From: a bacterium
Lineage (GTDB): Bacteria; Patescibacteriota; Minisyncoccia; Phycocordibacterales; UBA2100
Assembly (NCBI GenBank): GCA_030674455.1
Contig: JAUSGQ010000007.1
Coordinates: 19,947 to 83,946 of the forward strand
Direction: 5' to 3'
Length of the DNA stretch: 64,000 bases
The notes under the pieces were generated by a model. The model saw only the letters and a list, made by a program, of their open reading frames with translations. It was not told the origin of the DNA and ran no database searches. Both the position numbers and the translations under genes were made by a program. Below are positions 20,303-41,867 of the stretch, one piece after another (within the stretch, counting starts at the first letter, position 1; each line of letters opens with the position of its first letter).

Positions 20303-22378
20303 ATGAGTAAATCTGGCGTATTCAAGCTACGTAGTGATTATCGACCAGCTGGAGATCAACCTACGGCTATAAAGTCACTCGTCGACGGCTTGAAAGAAGG
20401 GAAACGACACCAGACACTACTTGGCGTCACCGGTTCCGGCAAGACCTTTACGATGGCAAATGTGATTGAAAAAACGCAGAAACCTACGCTCGTCATTGCG
20501 CACAACAAGACGCTTGCCGCTCAACTCACTGCGGAATATCGCGAGTTCTTTCCCGAAAATGCAGTGCATTACTTTGTTTCTTATTACGATTACTATCAGC
20601 CGGAAGCATATATGCCGATAAGCGATACATATATCGAAAAAGAATCGCAAGTAAATGAGGACATAGAAAGGCTGCGGCACGCGGCGACGCAGGCGCTGCT
20701 TACAAGAAAAGATGTCATTGTCGTCGCGTCGGTCTCCTGCATTTATGGCCTAGGTAGCCCGTTTGAGTACGAGAAAGTAAACATGAAGCTCACGAAAGGA
20801 GAGCCGCTCACTCGCGCCGCTCTTATGAGACGACTAATCGGTATGTATTTCGAAAGAGTTGCCGGCGACCTTTCGCCCGGCACTTTTCGCGCGCTTGGCT
20901 CGTACGTGGAGATCATGCCGGCAAACGAGAGAATTATTAAAAGAATCGACCTCTCACAAGGTAAAGTCTCTAAAATAGAAGAAATCGACGCGACAACGCG
21001 TGAATCATTAGGGACGCACGACGCAATATTTGTTTTCCCGGCGAAGCATTATGTGACACCAAAGGATGTGCAAGAACTTGCACTTACTGATATTGAGCTC
21101 GAGCTTAAGGAACAGTTAAAAAAGTTTGATGCGGCTGGCAAAATATTGGAGGCGGAGCGATTGAAGCGAAGGACTCGTCAGGACATCTCAATGATACGCG
21201 AGTTCGGATTCTGCAACGGTATTGAAAATTATTCGCGGCACTTCGACAGACGGCAAGCGGGAGAGCCGCCGCATACTCTGCTTTCGTATTTTACGAAGAA
21301 TGTTGGAAGTTCAACGGATTTTCTCACAATTATAGATGAATCGCACGTTACCGTTCCGCAGATAGGCGGCATGTACGCAGGAGACCGCGCGCGCAAGGAT
21401 ATGCTGGTGCAACACGGATTCCGGCTTCCGAGCGCGATTGATAACAGACCGCTCAATTTTGATGAATTCCAAGAGCGTGTCGGACAAACAATTTATACGA
21501 GCGCGACACCCGGAACGTATGAATTAGAACATAGCGGCAAACCTATCGAACAGGTCATCCGCCCTACAGGACTCGTTGACCCAGAAATTATCGTGAAGCC
21601 CATCGTGGGCGGTGGACCGAGGACGGTCCTCAAGGGAGCCCGAGGACCGTCCTCGGTCCCCGAGAAGTATCCGGGGCAGGTAAAGGATTTCATCGCCGAG
21701 GCAGAAATCGTTACCAAGCGGGGCGGACGCTCGATGGTCACCGTCCTTACGAAAAAAATGGCAGAAGATCTGACAACCTTTTTGCTCGAAAAGAAGATTA
21801 GAGCGCAGTATGTACATTCCGACGTGAAAACAATCGAAAGAATAGAAATTCTTACGAATTTCCGCAAGGGCACGTTTGATGTATTGGTCGGCGTCAACTT
21901 ATTGCGAGAAGGATTGGATTTGCCCGAAGTCGAGCTCGTAGGAATTATGGACGCCGATAAAGAGGGCTTTCTGCGTTCCGAAACTTCACTCATCCAAACA
22001 ATCGGCCGAGCTGCGAGAAACGTGCTGGGTCGTGTGATTTTGTACGCGGATTCTCCTACGGGTTCTATGGAGAGGGCAATTCGCGTGACAAATGAGAGGC
22101 GCGCCCGCCAAATTGAATACAATAAGAAGCATGGTATTACGCCAAAAACGATAAAGACTAGGATAAAAGATATCGTGGGAGATATCGTAAGCGCAAGAAG
22201 GCGTGCGGTATTTGACCTTGCAAAGCTCGATTCTGCGGCATATGCGGGAAGCAAGGCAAGCTTAATCACAGCCAAGCGACGAGAAATGCGAGAGGCAGCG
22301 AGTATACTTGATTTTGAAACAGCCGCGCTTTTGCGGGATGAAATTCAAGAACTTGAAAAGGGTAAACGAAAGCGATAA
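20303..22378 (+). CDS. uvrB: excinuclease ABC subunit B
   Basis: Helicase motifs GVTGSGKT, the beta-hairpin region YYDYYQPEAY and a C-terminal UVR domain. Confidence 0.95.
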   Translation: MSKSGVFKLRSDYRPAGDQPTAIKSLVDGLKEGKRHQTLLGVTGSGKTFTMANVIEKTQKPTLVIAHNKTLAAQLTAEYREFFPENAVHYFVSYYDYYQPEAYMPISDTYIEKESQVNEDIERLRHAATQALLTRKDVIVVASVSCIYGLGSPFEYEKVNMKLTKGEPLTRAALMRRLIGMYFERVAGDLSPGTFRALGSYVEIMPANERIIKRIDLSQGKVSKIEEIDATTRESLGTHDAIFVFPAKHYVTPKDVQELALTDIELELKEQLKKFDAAGKILEAERLKRRTRQDISMIREFGFCNGIENYSRHFDRRQAGEPPHTLLSYFTKNVGSSTDFLTIIDESHVTVPQIGGMYAGDRARKDMLVQHGFRLPSAIDNRPLNFDEFQERVGQTIYTSATPGTYELEHSGKPIEQVIRPTGLVDPEIIVKPIVGGGPRTVLKGARGPSSVPEKYPGQVKDFIAEAEIVTKRGGRSMVTVLTKKMAEDLTTFLLEKKIRAQYVHSDVKTIERIEILTNFRKGTFDVLVGVNLLREGLDLPEVELVGIMDADKEGFLRSETSLIQTIGRAARNVLGRVILYADSPTGSMERAIRVTNERRARQIEYNKKHGITPKTIKTRIKDIVGDIVSARRRAVFDLAKLDSAAYAGSKASLITAKRREMREAASILDFETAALLRDEIQELEKGKRKR
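21614..21662. repeat. in-frame palindromic insert in uvrB (CCGAGGACGGTCCTC-AAGGGAGC-CGAGGACCGTCCTCGG), encoding GGGPRTVLKGARGPSSVPE
   Basis: The inverted repeat is visible. Relative to E. coli UvrB as I recall it, this region carries an extra segment of about 20 aa. Confidence 0.7.
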
Positions 22379-24590: not shown

Positions 24591-27287
24591 ATGTCAAAAA
24601 AAAACGAACATTCAGGGGAAGCCGAGAAAATCGTAGTTAAAGGCGCACGCACGCATAACTTGAAGAACATCACGGTAGAAATACCGCGGAATAAAATGGT
24701 GGTTTTTACAGGCCTTTCCGGCTCTGGGAAATCATCTCTCGCTTTTGACACCATATTTGCCGAGGGCCAGCGCAAATACGTGGAGTCTCTTTCTGCCTAT
24801 GCCCGTCAGTTCTTGCGGCAAATGCAAAAACCGGATGTCGATGAGATATCCGGCCTATCTCCTGCCATTTCAATAGACCAAAAATCGCGCTCGAATAATC
24901 CACGTTCCACAGTCGCTACAATTACCGAAATCTATGATTATCTGCGTGTTCTCTATGCGAGAGTAGGCAAACCTCACTGCACTATCTGCGGCAGGGAAGT
25001 TAAGAAACATACGAATGAGGAGATACTTGAGTCAGTTCTCAAAATAGTGGACAAGGCTCGAAAGTACCAAGGAGAGACCTTAAAATACCCAAGGTCTCAC
25101 CTTAAGGTTCAAGATAAGAAGCTCACAAAAAATGTATCGAGCGCAAAGGTCACAATAACGTCACCGGTGGTTGTCGGTAGAAAAGGGGAGTACTACCAGC
25201 TTCTTTATGACTTGCTCAATAAGGGATTCGAGAAAGTAATAATTGATGGCGAAGAGAAGAAGCTGCGTGAAAGAATCATTCTCGAGAAGAATCATAAACA
25301 CGATATAGATGTCGTGGTCGATGAAATATTTGTCAGTGAATTTGCCGACGATGCGAAAGCTGCGCGCGAACGGGCATCGGAAGCTATCGAAAGAGCTCTG
25401 CATGAATCCAATGGGCTGGTAAAGATAATAGGCGCGAGCGGAGAATCACACATTGTCTCGGCAAAGTTTATGTGCCCGTACGACGGATTCTCATTTCCTG
25501 AAATCGAGCCGCGGCTCTTTTCGTTCAATTCTCCGCATGGCGCTTGCCCCGCATGCAATGGCCTAGGTTCTAAGTATTTCTTTGGCGACGAGCCGTGCGA
25601 TGTGTGTAATGGTGCCCGGTTGCGTCCGGAGGCATTAAATGTGTTTCTTGGGACAAATAGTCGAGGAGACACCTCGCAAGCGAGGAGCCACCTCGACTCA
25701 CCCCATGGTCTGCATATTGTCGATTTAAGCTCGTCATCTATAGACGACGCAAAGAAATTCTTTGACTCGCTTAAACTTACCAAAAAGGAAGAGGAAATAT
25801 CCAAGGTCGTAATCAAAGAAATTATGAGCCGGCTGCGCTTTATGCAAGATGTCGGCATTGAATACTTAACACTCGACCGAAAAGCCAACACTCTATCGGG
25901 CGGTGAAGCACAGCGCATTCGTCTGGCATCACAGCTTGGAAGCGGGCTCGTTGGCGCGCTCTATGTGCTTGATGAGCCGACAATCGGGCTTCACCAGCGC
26001 GACAACGACAAACTTATTGAGACTCTCAAACACCTGCGCGATATCGGCAATACAGTAATCGTGGTAGAACACGATGAGGACACCATTTTCGCATCCGATT
26101 ACATCGTGGATCTAGGCCCTGGCGCTGGCATTCATGGAGGTAATGTCGTGGTGTCGGGGTGGCTCGATGAGCTATTGACCGCCAAATCCAATAAGTCCGG
26201 CTCGCGTACTCTTGCGTATCTACGTGGAGAGTCATCAATTGAAACGCCGGAGAAATGGCGAACTGCTGACAGAGGAAAGATAAAAATTCGCGGGGCTTCA
26301 AAATTTAACATTAAAAATATAAACGTTGATATACCGCTCGGCAAACTTGTGGCAATCACGGGGGTGTCTGGTTCCGGCAAGTCGACGTTTCTCTATGAGA
26401 TGCTTCATCGCAATTTGCTGGCGCGCTTTGATAAGCGGTACCGTACGGCAAAAATCTACAACTGCAAGGAATTCAGCGGAACGGAATATCTTTCACGCTC
26501 CATATTGATTGATCAATCGCCCATAGGAAGAACCCCGCGCTCAAATCCTGCAACGTACACAGGTGCTTTCACGCACATTCGCGACCTATTCGCGATGAGC
26601 GAGGATGCTCGAGCGCGCGGATGGGGTCCGGGACGATTTAGCTTCAATGTAAAAGGCGGGCGATGTGAGGTATGCCAGGGCAACGGCCTTGTCGCTGTCG
26701 AAATGCACTTTTTGCCGACGGTCTATGTCACATGCGACATGTGCAACGGAAAACGTTTTATGAAGGAGACACTTGATGTTAAATATAAAAAGAAAAGCAT
26801 TTATGACGTGTTATCCATGACCGTCGAAGAGGCCTCGGCCTTCTTTGAGGATGTTCCTGCAATATCTGACAGGTTAAAAACTTTGTCTGATGTTGGCCTG
26901 GACTATCTAGAACTCGGCCAGAGCGCGACAACTCTATCCGGCGGTGAAGCGCAGCGAGTGAAAATTGCGTCAGAACTATATCGGCCGTTGGATGCAAAAA
27001 CGATGTACCTGTTGGATGAACCCACTGTGGGACTCCACTACGACGACGTGCAAAAACTTATCGATATATTGCAAAAGCTGGTTCAGCGGGGAAATAGCGT
27101 CGTTGTTATCGAACACAATCTTGATGTCTTGAAATGCGCAGATTGGATTATGGATATGGGACCGGAAGGAGGCGCCGGAGGCGGCGAAATCGTAGCCCGA
27201 GGAACGCCGCTCGAAGTTTCTAAAACCGACGGCTCATACACCGGATATTATCTGAAGCGAGTTTTGAAGAGAAAGGTAAAAGATTGA
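24591..27287 (+). CDS. uvrA: excinuclease ABC subunit A
   Basis: Two ABC modules with zinc-finger Cys clusters. The start is set at Met 24591 to avoid overlapping the terminator. Confidence 0.95.
25660..25697. repeat. in-frame imperfect palindrome or direct repeat in uvrA (GTCGAGGAGACACCTCGC-AA-GCGAGGAGCCACCTCGAC), encoding [14 protein letters not shown]
   Basis: It uses the same CGAGGA/TCCTCG word as the uvrB insert. Relative to E. coli UvrA as I recall it, this region is about 18 aa longer. Confidence 0.55.
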
Positions 27288-27303
27288 GATGTCATCTCAA
27301 TCT
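27281..27303. terminator. hairpin AGATTGAGATG-T-CATCTCAATCT overlapping the uvrA stop codon (family of 3)
   Basis: 11-bp arms. Related copies lie at 36390..36420 and 41847..41867. Confidence 0.5.
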
Positions 27304-27538
27304 TTTCATCCTAAAGGGGTTTTAAAGCTATCCGGAGCTTAAGCTTGACTCAAATTCTGCAGGGTGTACAAAGCCATTATCATCGGCTGTTTTGTGGTCG
27401 ATGATCCGTTCCTCTGAGGGAAAGTGAGGGATTGTAGGTGGCATAAAAAGCCACACGCGGGATGTATTCAAAGCATCCCCAATGTGACCGGACTCTGACA
27501 CAACACGATTCGTGTGTTGCAGTGGCCGGTCTTTTTCT

Positions 27539-30500
27539 TTATGTATATGCATCGACCGAGATAGATTTGAGTTCAGACGCCTTAATTCCTGCAAAAGCCA
27601 TGATGAATGCCTCGGCAAGCTGGCGATTGGTTATGAGCGGTATATTCAAGTCCACCGCTTTTCGGCGGATTATGTAGCCGTCTATCGCATCGCGGCCAAA
27701 TGCTTGAGCGGGAATATTTATTATCAAATCTACTTTACCTTTCTCTATAAGCGTTCCTACATTGGGCTCCTTGCCTCCGATTTTATAAACCTTTTCACAT
27801 GCAATTCCATTTTCTCTCATAAAATCGGCAGTATGCTCGGTGGCAAATAACTTGAAATTCATTTTGGCCAATTCTTGCAGAGCGGATAGTAATTTAATTT
27901 TATTTTCCTCTTTTCCCAAGGAAATCAGTATATTTCCCGACGCTTTGGTCGGGATCCCGACCTCGCTTCGCGAGCGTCGGGACTTATACGGCAATCTCCG
28001 ACGCTTTGGTCGGGGCAGGCGGAATCCTGAAGCAAGCATTGATTTAATCAGAGCTTCTGAAAATGTATCACCAAAACAAGCGACTTCGCCGGTAGAAGCC
28101 ATTTCCACGTTGGAAACGGGGTCGGCACCCTTTATGCGCGCATAGGAGAATTGCGGCGACTTTACTGCAATGTAATCAAGTTCAAGGGTGCGATAATCGC
28201 CGGAAACGTCTTTACCGAGCATCGCGCGCGTAGCAATATCAATAAAGTTATATCCCGTAGCTTTTGACACGAAAGGAAAGCTTCGAGATGAACGAACATT
28301 GCACTCAATGACTTGCAAATGGTTATCTTTTGCGATGAATTGAATATTGAACGGGCCGGTAATTTTCAGTTCTTTGACGACGTCCTTCGTGATGTGTTTA
28401 GCTCGTCGAATTGTCTCCATATATGTGCGCTGGGGAGGCAAAACCACCGTAGCGTCGCCAGAGTGCGTGCCGGCATTTTCGACGTGCTCCGTAATCGCGT
28501 AAATTATGAGCTTCCCGCGCGAAGCAACTCCGTCAATTTCAATTTCCCGCGCATTCTCGATAAATTTGGAAATCACGACCGGATGTTCCGTAGAGATATC
28601 AACCGCGCGTTTGAGAAAGCGCAAAAGAGATGTCTCGTCGTGCGCAACGCTCATCGCAGAGCCGGAGAGAACATATGACGGCCGGACAAGCACGGGATAT
28701 CCGATTCGCGCCGCAGCTATCGCTGCTTCTTTATGAGTAGTAAGTTCTACCCACTCGGGCTGATCAATTTCGAGCCTATCAAGAAGTTTAGAGAATGTGT
28801 GCCTGTCTTCGGCGCGGTCTATATCTTCTGGTTTTGTTCCCATGATTCTTACTCCTCGCTTATGCAGTGGGAGCGCGAGATTATTCGGAATTTGGCCGCC
28901 AGTAGAAATTACGACTCCTCGCGCTTTCTCAAATTGATAAATATCTAGAACACGCTCAAGCGAAAGTTCTTCAAAATACAGTCGGCTCGACATGTCGTAG
29001 TCGGTTGAAACGGTCTCCGGATTTGAATTTATCATTATCGTTTCGTATTCATTTTTTGAAAGAGTTTTTAACGCTTGTACGCAAGACCAATCAAATTCTA
29101 CCGACGAACCGATGCAATACGGTCCGCTTCCAAGGACGATCATACTTTTCTTGGTGCGACCTATATCATTCTCGGTCCCGTTATACGTCACATACAGATA
29201 ATTTGTTTTGGCGGGAAATTCTCCAGCCAAAGTGTCGATTTGCTTTATAACTGGCAGGATTTTGTGGCGCATTCGCTCCTGTCGGATCTTATCCTCAGTA
29301 CTTTTAATCAATGTGGCAATTTGAATATCAGAAAAACCAAGCTTCTTAGCCTCGAGCATGTCTTCTCTAAGAAGGTCTGACCTTCCAGGAAGGTCAGACC
29401 TTCTGAGATTTCTCGAGCAACGCATGATGTTCTTCATTTTTTCTAGAAACCACGGATCAATGCCGCCGGAAAGACGGCTGATCTTTGAGACGGACGTACC
29501 TCTGCGAAGTGCCTCTGCAATGGCAAAAATGCGGCGGGTAGTCGGGTGCTTGATTTCATCCAGATAATTTGCCACGCGAAAGTTACCATTTTTATGCGCT
29601 ACAAAACCATCCGCGCCAATGGAAAGCATACGAATAGCTTTCTGCAGTACCTCCTCAAAACTTCTGCCGATTGCCATCACTTCTCCCACACTTTTCATCT
29701 CCGTACCAATTTGCGTGATGGCATTCTCAAATTTCGTCAAATCCCAGCGCGGCATTTTAAGCACGATGTAATCAAGCGCCGGCTCGAAACAGGCCGTCGT
29801 GGATTTGGTTACCGAGTTTTTTAGTTGCGGCAGAGTAAAGCCCATTGCGAGTTTCGCCGCAATGAACGCGAGCGGATATCCTGTGGCCTTTGAGGCAAGC
29901 GCAGATGAGCGGGAAAGGCGCGCATTAACTTCTATGACGCGATAATCTCCGGTTTTCGGATGAAGCGCGTACTGTATATTGCATTCTCCCACGACGCCGA
30001 GATGCCTGATGGTCTTTATCGCGATTTCGCGCAAGCGATGATACTCCTCGTTCGTAAGAGTTTGTGACGGCGCCACGACCATACTTTCGCCCGTATGAAT
30101 GCCCATCGGGTCTATGTTTTCCATATTGCAAACGGAAATGCAGTTGTCGGTTCTGTCGCGCACAATTTCATACTCAACTTCTTTCCAACCGCACAAATCT
30201 TCTTCGATCAATACCTGCGGACTCGAGCCAAAGATTTCTGACAGTTTAGCGACAAGTTCTTTTTCCGTACGAACCACTCCGGAGCCAAGGCCGCCCAAGG
30301 CGAATCCCGCGCGCAACATGACCGGATAACCGATTTTTGTCGCCGCCTTTTTGGCATCAGATATATTTCTTGCTGCGAAACTTCGCGCTGTCTTAACATC
30401 AATTTTTTGCAGCCGCTTTATGAACATGTCTCTATCTTCTGTTTCGCGTATGACAGATACCGGTGTTCCCAAAACCTGCACTTTGTATTTAGAGAGAATC

Positions 30501-30838
30501 CCTTTCTCCTCCAGTTCAAGGCCGAGATTAAGCGCGGTTTGGCCGCCGAACCCTAGGAGAATCGCATCGGGTTTTTCTTTCTTGATAACCTGTACGGCAA
30601 ACGGCAAGGTAAGTGGCAAGAGGTAGACGACGTCTGCTACGTTTTCACTCTTTGCATCAGTTCCTTGAGCTGGCGAGTCCGTTTGAACTGTTGCGATATT
30701 CGGATTTATGAGTATGACGCGAATGCCTTCTTCTTTAAGAGCCTTAATCGCTTGTGTGCCGGAGTAATCAAATTCTCCGGCCTGACCGATTTTAAGACCG
30801 CCTGAACCGAGCAACAATACTTTTTTTATGGTCGTCAT
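27539..30838 (-). CDS. carB: carbamoyl-phosphate synthase large subunit
   Basis: 1099 aa with two ATP-grasp halves and an MGS-like C-terminal domain. Confidence 0.95.
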   Translation of the reverse strand: MTTIKKVLLLGSGGLKIGQAGEFDYSGTQAIKALKEEGIRVILINPNIATVQTDSPAQGTDAKSENVADVVYLLPLTLPFAVQVIKKEKPDAILLGFGGQTALNLGLELEEKGILSKYKVQVLGTPVSVIRETEDRDMFIKRLQKIDVKTARSFAARNISDAKKAATKIGYPVMLRAGFALGGLGSGVVRTEKELVAKLSEIFGSSPQVLIEEDLCGWKEVEYEIVRDRTDNCISVCNMENIDPMGIHTGESMVVAPSQTLTNEEYHRLREIAIKTIRHLGVVGECNIQYALHPKTGDYRVIEVNARLSRSSALASKATGYPLAFIAAKLAMGFTLPQLKNSVTKSTTACFEPALDYIVLKMPRWDLTKFENAITQIGTEMKSVGEVMAIGRSFEEVLQKAIRMLSIGADGFVAHKNGNFRVANYLDEIKHPTTRRIFAIAEALRRGTSVSKISRLSGGIDPWFLEKMKNIMRCSRNLRRSDLPGRSDLLREDMLEAKKLGFSDIQIATLIKSTEDKIRQERMRHKILPVIKQIDTLAGEFPAKTNYLYVTYNGTENDIGRTKKSMIVLGSGPYCIGSSVEFDWSCVQALKTLSKNEYETIMINSNPETVSTDYDMSSRLYFEELSLERVLDIYQFEKARGVVISTGGQIPNNLALPLHKRGVRIMGTKPEDIDRAEDRHTFSKLLDRLEIDQPEWVELTTHKEAAIAAARIGYPVLVRPSYVLSGSAMSVAHDETSLLRFLKRAVDISTEHPVVISKFIENAREIEIDGVASRGKLIIYAITEHVENAGTHSGDATVVLPPQRTYMETIRRAKHITKDVVKELKITGPFNIQFIAKDNHLQVIECNVRSSRSFPFVSKATGYNFIDIATRAMLGKDVSGDYRTLELDYIAVKSPQFSYARIKGADPVSNVEMASTGEVACFGDTFSEALIKSMLASGFRLPRPKRRRLPYKSRRSRSEVGIPTKASGNILISLGKEENKIKLLSALQELAKMNFKLFATEHTADFMRENGIACEKVYKIGGKEPNVGTLIEKGKVDLIINIPAQAFGRDAIDGYIIRRKAVDLNIPLITNRQLAEAFIMAFAGIKASELKSISVDAYT
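27935..28015. repeat. structured insert in the carB C-terminal region (direct repeats TCCCGACGCTTTGGTCGGG x2 with CTCGCTTCGCGAG between), encoding RPKRRRLPYKSRRSRSEVGIPTKAS on the minus strand
   Basis: Nested hairpins are visible. An arginine-rich segment of about 25 aa is absent from E. coli CarB at this position, as I recall it. Confidence 0.6.
29370..29404. repeat. perfect 17-1-17 palindrome AGAAGGTCTGACCTTCC-A-GGAAGGTCAGACCTTCT in frame in carB, encoding RRSDLPGRSDL
   Basis: The palindrome reads RSDLPGRSDL on both strands. It appears to be an 11-12-aa insertion relative to other CarB sequences. Confidence 0.75.
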
Positions 30839-30955: not shown

Positions 30956-32014
30956 CTAGATGCTGATAGAACGTATAAACTCATCAAATATCCATGCGGT
31001 GTCCGTTGGCCCCGGTGCTGCCTCGGGGTGGAACTGCACAGCTCGCCAGGCTTTTGATTTGTGCTTGATGCCCTCCACGCTTCCGTCATTCGCGTTGGTG
31101 AACCATACAGCCCAATCATGCGGAAGCGATTTTGCGTCAACAGCATACCCGTGATTTTGCGATGTTATGTAACAACGGCCTGTCTCCTGATCTACGCATG
31201 GTTGATTTTGTGAGCGATGACCGTATTTGAGCTTGTATGTACTTCCGCCCGCGGCGAGCGCCAAGAGTTGAGTTCCGAGGCAGATGCCTAATATCGGCTT
31301 TGGCATAAGCATTGCACGCTTGAGATTTTCAATTGTATTGCCGCACATGTTTGGGTCGCCGGGCCCGTTGGAAATCACAAGCGCATCATGCGGCTCATTC
31401 GCAAAATCATAGTCCCATGGAACGCGTACGATCGTAATTTCAGGGCGCACGAGTGAGCGCAAAATATTTTCCTTCATCCCGCAGTCAACTATAACGATGG
31501 TAGTGGCCCCATTGCCGTACGTTTCCGGCTTTTTTATACTGACCCGCGCAACGAGATTCTCCTTATTCGGGTCAACAAAAGCCGATGCAGTGAGGCGTCG
31601 CCTCACTGCATTCACAGGCCTGGCGTCTATTATGCCGAGCATCACACCGTGTTCGCGCAATTTTTTTGCAAGCGCACGCGTATCTACGCCCGTAATTGCC
31701 GGAACACCGGAGCGCTTAAGCCACTCCGATAATGACTCGCACGCCAACTGGTGCGAATAATTCTCGGAATAGTCCGCCACGATTAGGCCAGCGGCCTGGA
31801 TTTTATCGGATTCAAAATATTTACGTTCTGGCACGCCATAATTTCCCACCAGAGGATAGCTCAAGACAATGATTTGTCCTGCATATGAGGGGTCCGATAA
31901 GCTCTCTACATATCCGACCATCCCCGTGTTAAAAACCACCTCGCCGGATGCCGATACGGGTGCGCCAAAGCTTTTACCCTCAAATACTGTCCCGTCTTTA
32001 AGAGTTAATTTCAT
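30956..32014 (-). CDS. carA: carbamoyl-phosphate synthase small subunit (glutamine amidotransferase)
   Basis: GATase class I motifs, including ICLGHQ-like GICLGTQ. Confidence 0.9.
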   Translation of the reverse strand: MKLTLKDGTVFEGKSFGAPVSASGEVVFNTGMVGYVESLSDPSYAGQIIVLSYPLVGNYGVPERKYFESDKIQAAGLIVADYSENYSHQLACESLSEWLKRSGVPAITGVDTRALAKKLREHGVMLGIIDARPVNAVRRRLTASAFVDPNKENLVARVSIKKPETYGNGATTIVIVDCGMKENILRSLVRPEITIVRVPWDYDFANEPHDALVISNGPGDPNMCGNTIENLKRAMLMPKPILGICLGTQLLALAAGGSTYKLKYGHRSQNQPCVDQETGRCYITSQNHGYAVDAKSLPHDWAVWFTNANDGSVEGIKHKSKAWRAVQFHPEAAPGPTDTAWIFDEFIRSISI

Positions 32015-32238: not shown

Positions 32239-33561
32239 ATGTCGCGTGAGTATACTGGAAACATGGTGCGCGATGACTTAATCAAATTTAAATTGCCCGA
32301 CAGTCCGGGTATATACTATTATCGAAATTCGAGGGGCAAAATTCTATACATTGGTAAAGCTACATCTCTGCGCGACCGCGTACGGAGCTATTTTTTGTCA
32401 GGTCTATCGGAATCTCGAAGCACGGCAATCGCAGCAATGATAGATGAGACGCACTCCGTCACATGGCAAACGACCGAGTCGGTTCTTGAAGCTCTGATAC
32501 TCGAAGCGAATGAGATAAAAAAACATCAGCCGAAATACAATGCACGAGAAAAGGACGACAAGAGCTTTAATTTTCTCGTAATCACAAAGGAAGATTTCCC
32601 GCGCGTTTTAGTAATTCGCGGCCGCGAACTATTTTCTCCACTTATCGCTAATCGCTATTCGCTAACCGCTATCTTCGGCCCATATCCGCAGGGACGTTCA
32701 CTGCAAGAAGCTCTGAAAATCGTTCGGAAAATATTTCCTTTCCGCGATAAATGCATTCCATGTGACACTGCGGAAAAATCCTTACTTTCTAATTCGCGCG
32801 AATTAGAAAGTAAAGAAACTCATGTACATCTTAAACATAAATGCAGGCCGTGCTTCAATCATCAGATAGGATTATGTCCCGGTGTATGCAGTGGGGAAAT
32901 ATCAAAAAACGATTATGCTCGAACTATACGACACATTAAGACTCTATTTTCAGGGAAAATAAAGAGGTTGAAGAGGGATCTGGAACGAGAAATGAGAGCC
33001 GAATCGAAAGCCGAGCGATTTGAAAAGGCCGCCATATTGCGTCGACAAATTGGTTCGTTAAACCACATACGCGACGTATCGCTAATAAATAACGATAACA
33101 TGGCCGATTTACCCAGGAAACCTACGAGGATAGAGGCGTATGACGTGGCACATACGTCGGGATCGGAGACAGTAGCCGTAATGACTGTTGTGAATAATGG
33201 CGAGCCCGAAAAGAGTTCCTACAGAAAATTCAAGATTCAAACTGCTGCAAACGACGACATTGGAGCACTCAAAGAGGTTCTCTCACGCCGCCTGGCGCAC
33301 TCGGAGTGGCCCTTGCCGAGCGTGTTTGTTGTGGACGGAGGAACTGCGCAATTGCGTGCGGCCGCAAATATTCTAAAAGACGCTGGTATAATGATTCCCG
33401 TGGTATCTGTGGTAAAAAACGAATTTCATAAACCCGAACGGCTCATGGGAGATACGAATGCAATTAAGACCTTGGGAAAAGAAATTCTTCTTGCCAATCA
33501 AGAAGCGCATCGTTTTGCGATTACGTATCATAGAAAACGACGAGGTCGACTAACGATATGA
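32239..33561 (+). CDS. uvrC: excinuclease ABC subunit C, short form lacking C-terminal HhH
   Basis: GIY-YIG motif (PGIYYY...ILYIGKA), a UVR domain and an RNase H-like endonuclease domain. The track start at 32206 is also possible. Confidence 0.85.
   Translation: MSREYTGNMVRDDLIKFKLPDSPGIYYYRNSRGKILYIGKATSLRDRVRSYFLSGLSESRSTAIAAMIDETHSVTWQTTESVLEALILEANEIKKHQPKYNAREKDDKSFNFLVITKEDFPRVLVIRGRELFSPLIANRYSLTAIFGPYPQGRSLQEALKIVRKIFPFRDKCIPCDTAEKSLLSNSRELESKETHVHLKHKCRPCFNHQIGLCPGVCSGEISKNDYARTIRHIKTLFSGKIKRLKRDLEREMRAESKAERFEKAAILRRQIGSLNHIRDVSLINNDNMADLPRKPTRIEAYDVAHTSGSETVAVMTVVNNGEPEKSSYRKFKIQTAANDDIGALKEVLSRRLAHSEWPLPSVFVVDGGTAQLRAAANILKDAGIMIPVVSVVKNEFHKPERLMGDTNAIKTLGKEILLANQEAHRFAITYHRKRRGRLTI
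32782..32813. repeat. perfect 32-bp palindrome TTACTTTCTAATTCGC|GCGAATTAGAAAGTAA in frame in uvrC (encodes LSNSRELESK)
   Basis: TTCGCGCGAA core, as in the intergenic copies and the yggS copy. Confidence 0.8.
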
Positions 33562-35460: not shown

Positions 35461-35507
35461 ATTATTTGCTAGTCTGGCAGAAAACCTGTAACCTACACCC
35501 TGTTCAT

Positions 35508-35580
35508 GGGCCGGTAGTTCAGTGGTAGAACGTCTCATTTGCAATGAGAAGGTCGGGGGTTCGATTCCTCTCCGGTCCAC
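35508..35580 (+). tRNA. tRNA-Ala (anticodon UGC)
   Basis: Acceptor stem GGGCCGG/CCGGTCC with the G3:U70 Ala identity pair, anticodon loop CTCATTTGCAATGAG (TGC) and T-loop GGTTCGATTCC. Confidence 0.9.
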
Positions 35581-35650
35581 CCCGTTAGAGATTAGTAACG
35601 TCTTTATTACTGATTCGTCGAATAACTCTTTTATATATCTAAAGGTATAA

Positions 35651-36376
35651 ATGATCTCTAACGGGGTCCACAAAATGATTAGTGCAAATCTTAGGAATAT
35701 AGAAGGCGAAATGAGTAGCGCGGGTAGGAAAGTTACCTTGGTTGCTGTAACAAAAAGCGTGGGGATAGACGAAACAAACGAAATCATTAAAGCGGGAGTG
35801 CGCGCAATCGGAGAAAATAGAGTCGAGGATTTTGAAAAGAAAATCACGCAATTGCTTCCGGTAGAAAAGCATTTCATCGGGCAAATTCAATCGCGAAAGA
35901 TTAAACGAATTGTAGAACTATTTGATGTTATTCAATCTGTCGATTCAATCGAGCACTTAGAGAAAATCGAGAGGGAGGCAGTCTCTCAAAACAAAAAAAT
36001 AAAAATTCTTCTACAGTTCAATATTTCACGGGAGGCGCAAAGAGGCGGCTTCGAACCAAGTGATGTCGTACAAATTATTAAAGCTATTGGAAGGTATTCA
36101 CTATCGGTTAATTCGCGCGAATTAACCGATAAGAGCAATAGCATTTTGTCGATTCAACATGTGGAAATCATCGGAGTGATGGGAATGGCTAGCGATACTA
36201 CAGATACTGAAGTGGTGAGAGAGCAGTTTCGCTTGCTAAAAGATATTAGAGACCAATTGCAGTCGAAATATCCTAAAATCAAAGAACTGTCGATGGGCAT
36301 GTCTAGTGACTGCCAAATCGCCCTGGAGGAAGGCGCCACAATACTGCGAATCGGCAGGGCACTATTCAGCAATTAG
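35651..36376 (+). CDS. yggS: YggS-family pyridoxal phosphate homeostasis protein
   Basis: VTKSV, GENRVQ-like GENRVE, HFIGQIQSRK and SMGMSSD motifs. Confidence 0.85.
   Translation: MISNGVHKMISANLRNIEGEMSSAGRKVTLVAVTKSVGIDETNEIIKAGVRAIGENRVEDFEKKITQLLPVEKHFIGQIQSRKIKRIVELFDVIQSVDSIEHLEKIEREAVSQNKKIKILLQFNISREAQRGGFEPSDVVQIIKAIGRYSLSVNSRELTDKSNSILSIQHVEIIGVMGMASDTTDTEVVREQFRLLKDIRDQLQSKYPKIKELSMGMSSDCQIALEEGATILRIGRALFSN
36105..36128. repeat. perfect 24-bp palindrome CGGTTAATTCGC|GCGAATTAACCG in frame in yggS (encodes SVNSRELTDK)
   Basis: Same TTCGCGCGAA core and the same reading frame (NSREL) as the uvrC copy. Confidence 0.8.
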
Positions 36377-36389
36377 CGCGTTTCTTTGA

Positions 36390-36420
36390 CAATCCAATGA
36401 GATGTCATCTCATTGGATTG
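36390..36420. terminator. hairpin CAATCCAATGAGATG-T-CATCTCATTGGATTG, 14 nt after the yggS stop
   Basis: 15-bp arms. It belongs to the same GAGATGNCATCTC family as 27281 and 41847. Confidence 0.5.
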
Positions 36421-41824: not shown

Positions 41825-41846
41825 GGCGGTTTTCTTATCCCAATCG

Positions 41847-41867
41847 ATTGAGATGACATCTCAATCC
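41847..41867. terminator. hairpin GATTGAGATG-A-CATCTCAATC after rplU (family of 3)
   Basis: 10-bp arms. A second hairpin ATGAGGTT-TAA-CCTCAT follows. Confidence 0.5.

Follow-up and report, generated by a model that had tools for sequence, protein, structure and literature searches.

A double-hairpin element of Patescibacteria and Omnitrophota inserted in frame in carB and its recurrence in GIY-YIG cassettes of tRNA genes

Introduction

Rickettsia palindromic elements (RPEs), a family that goes back to Ogata et al. in 2000, are reportedly selfish palindromic repeats that lie in frame in protein-coding genes. The double-hairpin elements (DHEs) of Allomyces mitochondria and the GC clusters of yeast are tiny mobile units built from two hairpins. 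RPEs are mentioned in PMC1779305 and PMC10969869, and DHEs together with GC clusters are cited in PMC2800124 and PMC4478555. Among bacterial repeats, repetitive extragenic palindromes (REP), their assemblies (BIME, REPIN) and the REP-associated tyrosine transposase (RAYT) have been described as a system of short, G+C-rich imperfect palindromes that form inverted doublets (PMC3116915, PMC3337134), and the PATEs are palindrome-associated elements derived from IS200/IS605 (PMC3119063, PMC6006769). SegB of phage T4, finally, is a free-standing GIY-YIG homing endonuclease encoded in a tRNA gene region or cluster (PMC2330249, PMC2988022). Here, we report on a double-hairpin element, E, that lies in frame within carB in a stretch of 64,000 nucleotides from a Patescibacteriota contig (JAUSGQ010000007.1, positions 19,947 to 83,946; henceforth the window), and whose relatives recur as the front module of small GIY-YIG cassettes in tRNA genes. 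Literature searches on palindromic, REP or GIY-YIG/tRNA elements of the candidate phyla radiation (CPR)/Patescibacteria turned up neither E nor the cassettes, albeit with incomplete coverage, which leaves their novelty unproven.

Results

The block at 27935-28015 of the window (81 bp) is a copy of E plus an extra hairpin, inserted in frame into carB (minus strand) and drawn from a family dispersed in Patescibacteria and Omnitrophota. It holds three hairpins with the common stem CCCGAC/GTCGGG, two of which form the 48-bp core, i.e. element E itself (27935-27982), which encodes S953-G968 (SRRSRSEVGIPTKASG) and is bordered by AAG (K952, 27983-27985) and AAT (N969, 27932-27934). On the coding strand this double hairpin reads [T-CCCGAC-G-CTCGC-GAA-GCGAG-GTCGGG-A][T-CCCGAC-CAAAG-C-GTCGGG-A]. 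Hairpin A (27935-27954; plus strand T-CCCGAC-GCTTTG-GTCGGG-A) has a 7-bp stem (TCCCGAC/GTCGGGA) and a 6-nt loop (CAAAGC on the coding strand); hairpin B (27955-27982; plus strand T-CCCGAC-CTCGCTTCGCGAGC-GTCGGG-A) has the same outer 7-bp stem, inside which the coding strand shows a bulged G and a nested mini-hairpin (CTCGC-GAA-GCGAG). A spacer on the minus strand (27983-27996; plus strand cttatacggcaatc) follows with the codons (T)TG CCG TAT AAG for L-P-Y-K, which in a codon comparison with orthologues are similar to the native R-L-P-K-K codons. The extra hairpin C occupies the region 27990-28015, with T-CCGAC-GCTTTG-GTCGG-GG on the plus strand at 27997-28015 and the hairpin proper at 27998-28013. 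It is part of a 24-nt insertion (27990-28013) that is flanked by TGCC..TGCC on the coding strand and missing from the otherwise homologous carB allele of locus L001. Its region includes a 17-nt exact copy of hairpin A (27998-28014), and this one 17-mer is read in two frames, giving RPKRR in hairpin C and PTKASG in hairpin A.

An earlier note on this DNA had described a repeat-plus-hairpin block with a palindrome between two direct copies, and the sequence is as it said, as is the encoded peptide RPKRRRLPYKSRRSRSEVGIPTKAS(G). Both direct copies exist, but the exact repeat is 17 nt long (CCGACGCTTTGGTCGGG, spacing 61) and the 19-mer that was quoted agrees at only 18 of 19 positions. Likewise, the palindrome CTCGCTTCGCGAG is present between the copies, yet as the nested tip of a third CCCGAC/GTCGGG hairpin rather than as a free-standing one. 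That reading was correct yet incomplete: it proposed no mechanism and missed both the make-up of the block (a 48-bp unit with an extra hairpin) and the cross-phylum family. With up to three mismatches, the 18-mer CCCGACCAAAGCGTCGGG occurs twice in the window versus 0.03 times expected (0/100 shuffles), and all three CCGAC..GTCGG hairpins of the 64 kb lie at the carB block. The RNA folding that the note had proposed as a check gave -45.6 kcal/mol for a 91-nt stretch of the minus strand (z = -6.15 versus shuffles); as DNA, the same stretch folds at -24.9 kcal/mol (z = -3.9).

Scanning species-representative genomes with the pattern CCCGACG-N(8-22)-GTCGGGRTCCCGAC retrieved at least 118 stretches and, among them, at least 96 unique complete doublets; some 8-10 stretches are chance matches from high-G+C genomes in which the second hairpin is missing. 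Nearly all hosts belong to Patescibacteria (many classes) or Candidatus Omnitrophota, and the complete genome of Velamenicoccus archaeovorus is among them. From these copies, the consensus AG^[Y-CCCGAC-G-(variable inner hairpin)-GTCGGG-R][Y-CCCGAC-(loop or inner hairpin)-C-GTCGGG-R] emerges, with lengths of 41-74 bp. Because a G-bulged hairpin is followed by its C-bulged inverse, E reads alike on both strands. A-G stands directly before the element (-3/-2) in ~70% of copies, and the first inner hairpin takes 89 distinct sequences in 96 copies with its pairing kept (perfect stem of 3.9 bp versus 2.0 when shuffled), as is also seen between L001 and L005, where the inner stem has been remodelled and pairing retained. 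Copies of E lie between genes, within long open reading frames (ORFs), where all three frames are represented, and upstream of tRNA genes. Relatives of the window lineage show the same architecture with other inner hairpins at carB residue ~551/561 (L001, L005), again at AAG^AAT, as well as in uvrB of L005 and uvrA of L001. When metagenomes were scanned for the carB-specific subfamily (inner TCGCGAAGCGA), only the L001-type carB allele came up, which gives no evidence of the exact variant at another locus. Scanning viral contigs with the family pattern gave one match, which lies in a G+C-rich contig, has no second hairpin and was judged to be chance, so that there is no evidence of a phage vector.

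That the block is an insertion follows from comparison with orthologues. Window carB (27539..30838, minus strand) encodes a carbamoyl-phosphate synthase large subunit of 1099 aa, which matches TIGR01369 with 1432 bits (cut-off 1027) over residues 2-1081, is identical (100%) to a CarB entered as 'MAG: bacterium' and has its nearest relatives in Parcubacteria/Kaiserbacteria-like CPR bacteria. The block peptide RPKRRRLPYKSRRSRSEVGIPTKASG adds ~25 residues (75 nt), stop-free and with the frame kept. In an alignment of 27 close orthologues, 25 lack it and read GFRLPKK|NILISLG, one of these (P0021) with only two extra residues (GS) at the site; P0010 (= L001) is the only orthologue with an insert at the same point (SRRSRSDVGIPTKASG), and it has the identical type of hairpin doublet. 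None carries a homologous non-repetitive segment here, which bears out the earlier claim that the segment is not expected in CarB. In four orthologues the empty site reads ..CCN AAG AAR | AAY ATT.. or, in L005, ..AGG AAA | GGC ATA... L001 has 48 nt at precisely that point, and the window has those 48 nt plus the 24 nt upstream that hold hairpin C. Target-site duplication is absent, empty AAG|AAT contrasting with filled AAG[E]AAT at both carB sites. Alignment with human CPS1 (5dot) matches up to ..GFKIPQ and picks up again past the insert, and by these alignments the insert follows the carbamate-phosphorylation domain, the last of the synthetase domains, and precedes strand 1 of the allosteric, MGS-like domain, in agreement with the location previously noted in the MGS-like C-terminal region. 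In an AlphaFold2 model, residues 944-966 are coil with a predicted local distance difference test score (pLDDT) below 50, between helix 926-936 and strand 969-974. Judged from size and composition alone (25 aa or 75 nt, three simple hairpins), the insert is too small for intein blocks or an intron core.

Further copies show how E behaves within genes. At least 23 of the 96 lie inside single ORFs of at least 250 aa, including carB, uvrA and uvrB, and depending on frame their peptides read PRR..VGVPT..SG, APT..VGVPT..VG or PD... In the stems of these 23 copies we counted 445 Watson-Crick pairs next to 7 G-T pairs in sense and 9 in antisense, with no asymmetry in energy. Since the stems are near-purely Watson-Crick and show no strand bias, E appears to be a palindrome at the DNA level; a selected RNA structure would be expected to tolerate G-U on one strand, which favours the DNA-level view. 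Consistent with this, searching Rfam with the block retrieved no credible family (top NsiR8 at 23 bits versus a gathering score of 61, the rest weaker). Between window and L001, E is identical at 44 of 48 nt (91.7%) versus 73.7% over the rest of carB, and third codon positions agree at 75% in E versus 44% in the rest of carB (near saturation). By this sequence comparison, the nucleotides of E are either constrained or young.

The characteristic place of the dispersed family is the 5' module of GIY-YIG cassettes in tRNA genes. Of 96 copies, 16 sit 13-81 nt upstream of a tRNA gene, and ~13 of these 16 lie within a duplicate of the first ~25 nt of that same tRNA, where they follow TAG^ or CTCAG^ (D-loop region). 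In four cases (L064, L093, L095, L028) an ORF of 86-98 aa that encodes a GIY-YIG catalytic domain (PF01541) lies between the E-bearing pseudo-fragment and the intact tRNA; the L064 ORF is degenerate (in-frame stop) and was left out of the Pfam scan. Among the scan loci, four of six small GIY-YIG-type ORFs (one of them degenerate) lie within 152 nt of E. Loci that were fetched independently through GIY-YIG protein homology (L129, L130, L131/132, L133, L134, L135/136, L137/138) showed the same order in 7/7 cases, namely tRNA nt 1-10 (..TAG), E or a close variant, CTCAG or TTGGTA, the GIY-YIG ORF and the intact tRNA. The last codons of the ORF together with its TAG stop are the first 10 nt of the intact tRNA (stop = T8-A9-G10). 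The nuclease (86-104 aa) consists of the catalytic domain only, and insertion is at TAG^CTCAG or CTCAG^TTGG of the tRNA D-loop region. Where the nuclease belongs to one subclade (P0126, P0128), insertion is at CTCAG^TTGG and the second hairpin is a variant (AGCCGAC..GTCGGCT), which means that the subclade co-varies with both E variant and insertion point.

Cassettes were seen in tRNAs for Thr, Lys, Ile and Val, their 5' copy being tRNA nt 1-10 or 1-15. In L095 the hairpin doublet flanks the ORF on both sides, L134 has two nested cassettes with different hairpins, and L133 has a second tRNA-Ile copy with an element in the D-loop. A short form with no ORF (L010, L012, L071, L110, L123 and ~8 more loci) consists of an E-bearing tRNA 5' copy (~25 nt, sometimes with leader) located 13-46 nt upstream of the intact tRNA, with tandem units in L010; it may be a cassette minus its ORF. 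A simple long target duplication was considered for the tRNA-upstream copies and rejected, E being inside the upstream tRNA 5' copy and not between copies. The carB locus is not a cassette: E is there by itself, with no flanking GIY-YIG ORF or tRNA fragment, and the sole tRNA of the window (35507-35582) is likewise free of E. Clustering the ORFs within 3 kb of E at 118 loci yielded no recurrent transposase-like family, the commonest neighbours being housekeeping genes.

At the carB site the history is patchy. A neighbour-joining tree places window CarB as sister to P0009 (46/50 bootstraps), which is without the insert at residue 944 (carB-944); P0010 belongs to a separate clade whose remaining members are without it, too. 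The P0010-type allele was seen in five assemblies and is, for that reason, not an assembly artefact. Just as patchy is the insert at residue 563 (carB-563), which is in P0009 and P0010 and not in the window. The carB-944 pattern may stem from precise loss on several occasions, from renewed insertion of related master copies at a hot spot or from allele transfer/conversion over a very short tract.

Other inserts occur in the same genes, carA, carB, uvrA and uvrB of this lineage having several hairpin inserts each. A perfect palindrome with 17-bp arms in carB (29366-29408, minus strand; AGAAGGTCTGACCTTCC-T-GGAAGGTCAGACCTTCT) encodes RRSDLPGRSDLL, where orthologues have only RSDLG, a gain of 6 aa; here native codons seem to have been duplicated locally in inverted orientation, rather than an element imported. 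A third lineage-specific carB insert (~30647-30676, residues 55-64, SPAQGTDAKS) shows no strong hairpin in the window copy, and because five other orthologues carry unrelated inserts of 9-20 aa there, these residues are an insertion hot spot. More G+C-rich hairpins in ORFs (21614-21659 in uvrB, 25659-25698 in uvrA, 31585-31611 in carA) coincide with short inserts that are patchy among orthologues; one insert is shared with two of three uvrA orthologues, and an RRRLTAS insert among them is also in L007. Overall, the window contains 27 perfect hairpins with stems of at least 9 bp versus ~3 in shuffles.

Other repeat types were noted as well. Directly after tRNA-Ala (35507-35582), an element (35583-35665) that resembles a MITE (a miniature transposable element with inverted repeats), with terminal inverted repeats CCCCGTTAGAGAT..ATCTCTAACGGGG, has repeated TCCAC on either side at the tRNA 3' end; five orthologues have the same repeat type in carB, where it makes up the in-frame 'PVRxxxSNGV' insert (e.g. 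L005 carB residue 197). Four zero-loop perfect palindromes (1546-1581, 2615-2650, 32782-32813, 36102-36131) differ in their arms and have the centre ATTCGC|GCGAAT in common; two are intergenic ~1 kb apart, two lie in ORFs, and related ones are found at 743-794 and 1393-1426. Intergenic palindromes with the core TGAGATG-N-CATCTCA (27278-27306, 36390-36420, 41846-41866), one of them between uvrA and carB, which converge, may act as terminators or bind proteins.

Discussion

Taken together, we consider it likely that the carB block is a stray, solo E, the front module of a cassette, which sits in an essential gene, is read through and probably neutral, and may owe its mobility to a GIY-YIG nuclease. 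The carB copy would have no ORF of its own and, to go by its intact frame, is probably transcribed and translated within CarB. The product would be a basic, Gly/Pro/Ser-rich and probably disordered surface loop before strand 1 of the allosteric domain that the enzyme tolerates, and the insert itself is best seen as selfish or neutral DNA rather than as a CarB adaptation. As to how a solo copy might arise, a scenario may be envisaged in which the structure- or sequence-specific GIY-YIG nuclease of a cassette, or possibly another trans-acting enzyme, introduces a nick or break into DNA after AG, with repair through short templated copying of E; alternatively, E could be cut and pasted as a hairpin. 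Stems would stay perfectly complementary through intra-strand template switching, and hairpin C may be a later, local and templated duplication of hairpin A. More tentatively, and with a probability that we put clearly below even, E may be the cognate DNA structure of undescribed minimal mobile cassettes that, throughout Patescibacteria and Omnitrophota, home into the part of tRNA genes that codes for the D-loop, the same nuclease scattering solo doublets into protein-coding genes. If so, E would be a GIY-YIG-driven counterpart of REP/RAYT and would supply reduced genomes with new peptide loops.

Several observations speak against this view of a stray, solo E. What ties GIY-YIG to mobilisation is a correlation, and E could instead be an independent parasite that piles up in dispensable tRNA 5' pseudo-copies made by the cassettes. 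In the window, neither strict nor relaxed searches gave further E copies above chance, and among the top 25 of 76 Pfam families matched (the annotation covered 63 window ORFs) there are only housekeeping families and no GIY-YIG cassette or transposase. The carB-944 insert is common to two CarB lineages that are not sisters, and testing for a recombination tract around the insert between window and L001 found none. Translation of the insert is assumed from its intact frame, and support for a disordered loop is weak because the AlphaFold2 model is shallow (mean pLDDT 65.8).

Independence from the cassettes is spelt out in the main rival scenario, which we regard as unlikely: E would be of the REP/REPIN or PATE sort, and a single-strand HUH (Y1) transposase such as a RAYT or an IS200/IS605 TnpA would move it. 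The tie to GIY-YIG would then be incidental, both parties using tRNA D-loop sequence and dead tRNA 5' copies being safe landing sites. With its two inverted, bulge-marked hairpins (G-bulge, C-bulge) and its symmetry at the DNA level, E does resemble a REP doublet; it also lacks a target duplication and has a short conserved 5' flank (AG), as in insertion of the IS200/IS605 type, and REPIN/RAYT biology offers a precedent (PMC3116915, PMC3337134). Against this, neither a recurrent transposase-like neighbour within 3 kb of E (118 loci) nor a GTAG-type motif was found; a REP/REPIN-RAYT gene partner is likewise neither recurrent near E in these loci nor among the window's top 25 of 76 Pfam families. 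In addition, at least a quarter of E copies are intragenic, and the presence of E in 7/7 GIY-YIG cassettes that were sampled independently of it is above what opportunistic colonisation predicts.

Explanations that place selection on the carB product fare worse. Were the hairpins a selected RNA device in the carB mRNA (translational pause, RNase site or stabiliser), the strong predicted fold (z = -6.15) and the position exactly at a domain boundary would make sense; E occurs also between genes, however, in both orientations, in all frames and in unrelated genes, its stems have neither G-U enrichment nor sense/antisense asymmetry, an Rfam family match is absent, and most close orthologues manage without the insert, which leaves this option very improbable. 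Hardly any weight remains for a lineage-specific functional CarB loop under selection at the protein level, i.e. a basic regulatory or interaction loop: it would account for a segment that is in frame, stop-free, highly basic and kept in two lineages, but conservation extends to nucleotides at synonymous positions and not to the peptide alone, one 17-mer is read in two frames within the insert, copies in other proteins are read in three frames, and the sister lineage P0009 does without it. Local origin, with the block made de novo by template-switch or fold-back replication errors and nothing imported, is the scenario to which we assign next to no probability. The other carB palindrome (29366-29408) does resemble a local inverted duplication of native RSDL codons, and hairpin C is a local copy of hairpin A, for which such an origin is still possible; the 48-bp core, in contrast, matches the consensus arm for arm at ~100 unrelated loci in two phyla, and this shared consensus refutes its local invention.

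What makes the stray, solo E in carB worth following up is that ultra-small CPR bacteria have streamlined genomes and yet one of their essential enzyme genes bears selfish DNA that is probably translated. E provides a testable handle on the movement of hairpin repeats, with a minimal GIY-YIG nuclease instead of an HUH transposase as candidate enzyme, as well as on tRNA-gene parasitism without gene killing and on the origin of surface loops in conserved proteins. In practical terms, hairpin inserts lengthen proteins, upset alignments and phylogenies of CPR marker genes and are usable as strain-level markers.

How, then, does E compare with known systems? Membership in the MITEs was rejected, there being no target-site duplication at either carB site, as was membership in REP/RAYT, whose extragenic habit does not fit the copies in long ORFs. 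E nonetheless is an inverted doublet of imperfect palindromes, like REPs and REPINs, and shares with them that it is non-autonomous, makes no target duplication and flanks the gene of a presumed mobilising enzyme. REPs, on the other hand, are extragenic, reach hundreds of copies per genome and depend on a Y1 HUH transposase, whereas E is often intragenic, low-copy in the window and next to a GIY-YIG nuclease gene, with no RAYT-like neighbour found at the 118 loci. PATEs are similar in that they end in hairpins on both sides, duplicate no target and adjoin a short conserved flank; they differ in that no TnpA was found near E, that E has no sequence between its hairpins and that its flank is only AG (~70%), compared to the 4-5 nt targets of the IS200/IS605 family. 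DHEs and GC clusters, too, are two-hairpin units in intergenic DNA, rRNA and protein-coding genes, some of them in frame, but they are organellar, unrelated in sequence and without a GIY-YIG/tRNA cassette. The attC sites of integrons (RYYYAAC..GTTRRRY) may be set beside E (YCCCGAC..GTCGGGR) as one more candidate comparison.

For the cassettes, the closest comparison is SegB, where a GIY-YIG gene in or next to tRNA genes presumably spreads by cleavage of cassette-free alleles. Seg proteins, however, exceed 200 aa, include a domain for DNA binding, come from phages and lack a hairpin doublet; the cassette nucleases are 86-104 aa long and use the tRNA TAG as stop, the tRNA 5' end is duplicated and E is always present, and the carB insert differs further in having no ORF whatever. 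For the insert itself, RPEs come nearest: they, too, are a short palindromic family in frame in housekeeping genes, which adds peptide at a tolerant surface position, has intergenic copies and is patchy among orthologues, and E conforms to this mode of action with an insert that is missing in 25/27 orthologues, a frame that is kept and at least 96 copies elsewhere. Compared by description, RPEs are ~100-150 bp long, Rickettsia-specific and AT-richer, with no known nuclease gene, whereas E has 41-74 bp in the form of two G+C-rich hairpins side by side whose CCCGAC/GTCGGG stem is fixed, belongs to Patescibacteria/Omnitrophota and is tied to GIY-YIG and tRNA genes. In our view, in-frame palindromic selfish DNA of the sort seen in carB is of a known kind, and the link to GIY-YIG nucleases and tRNA genes is the more novel possibility.

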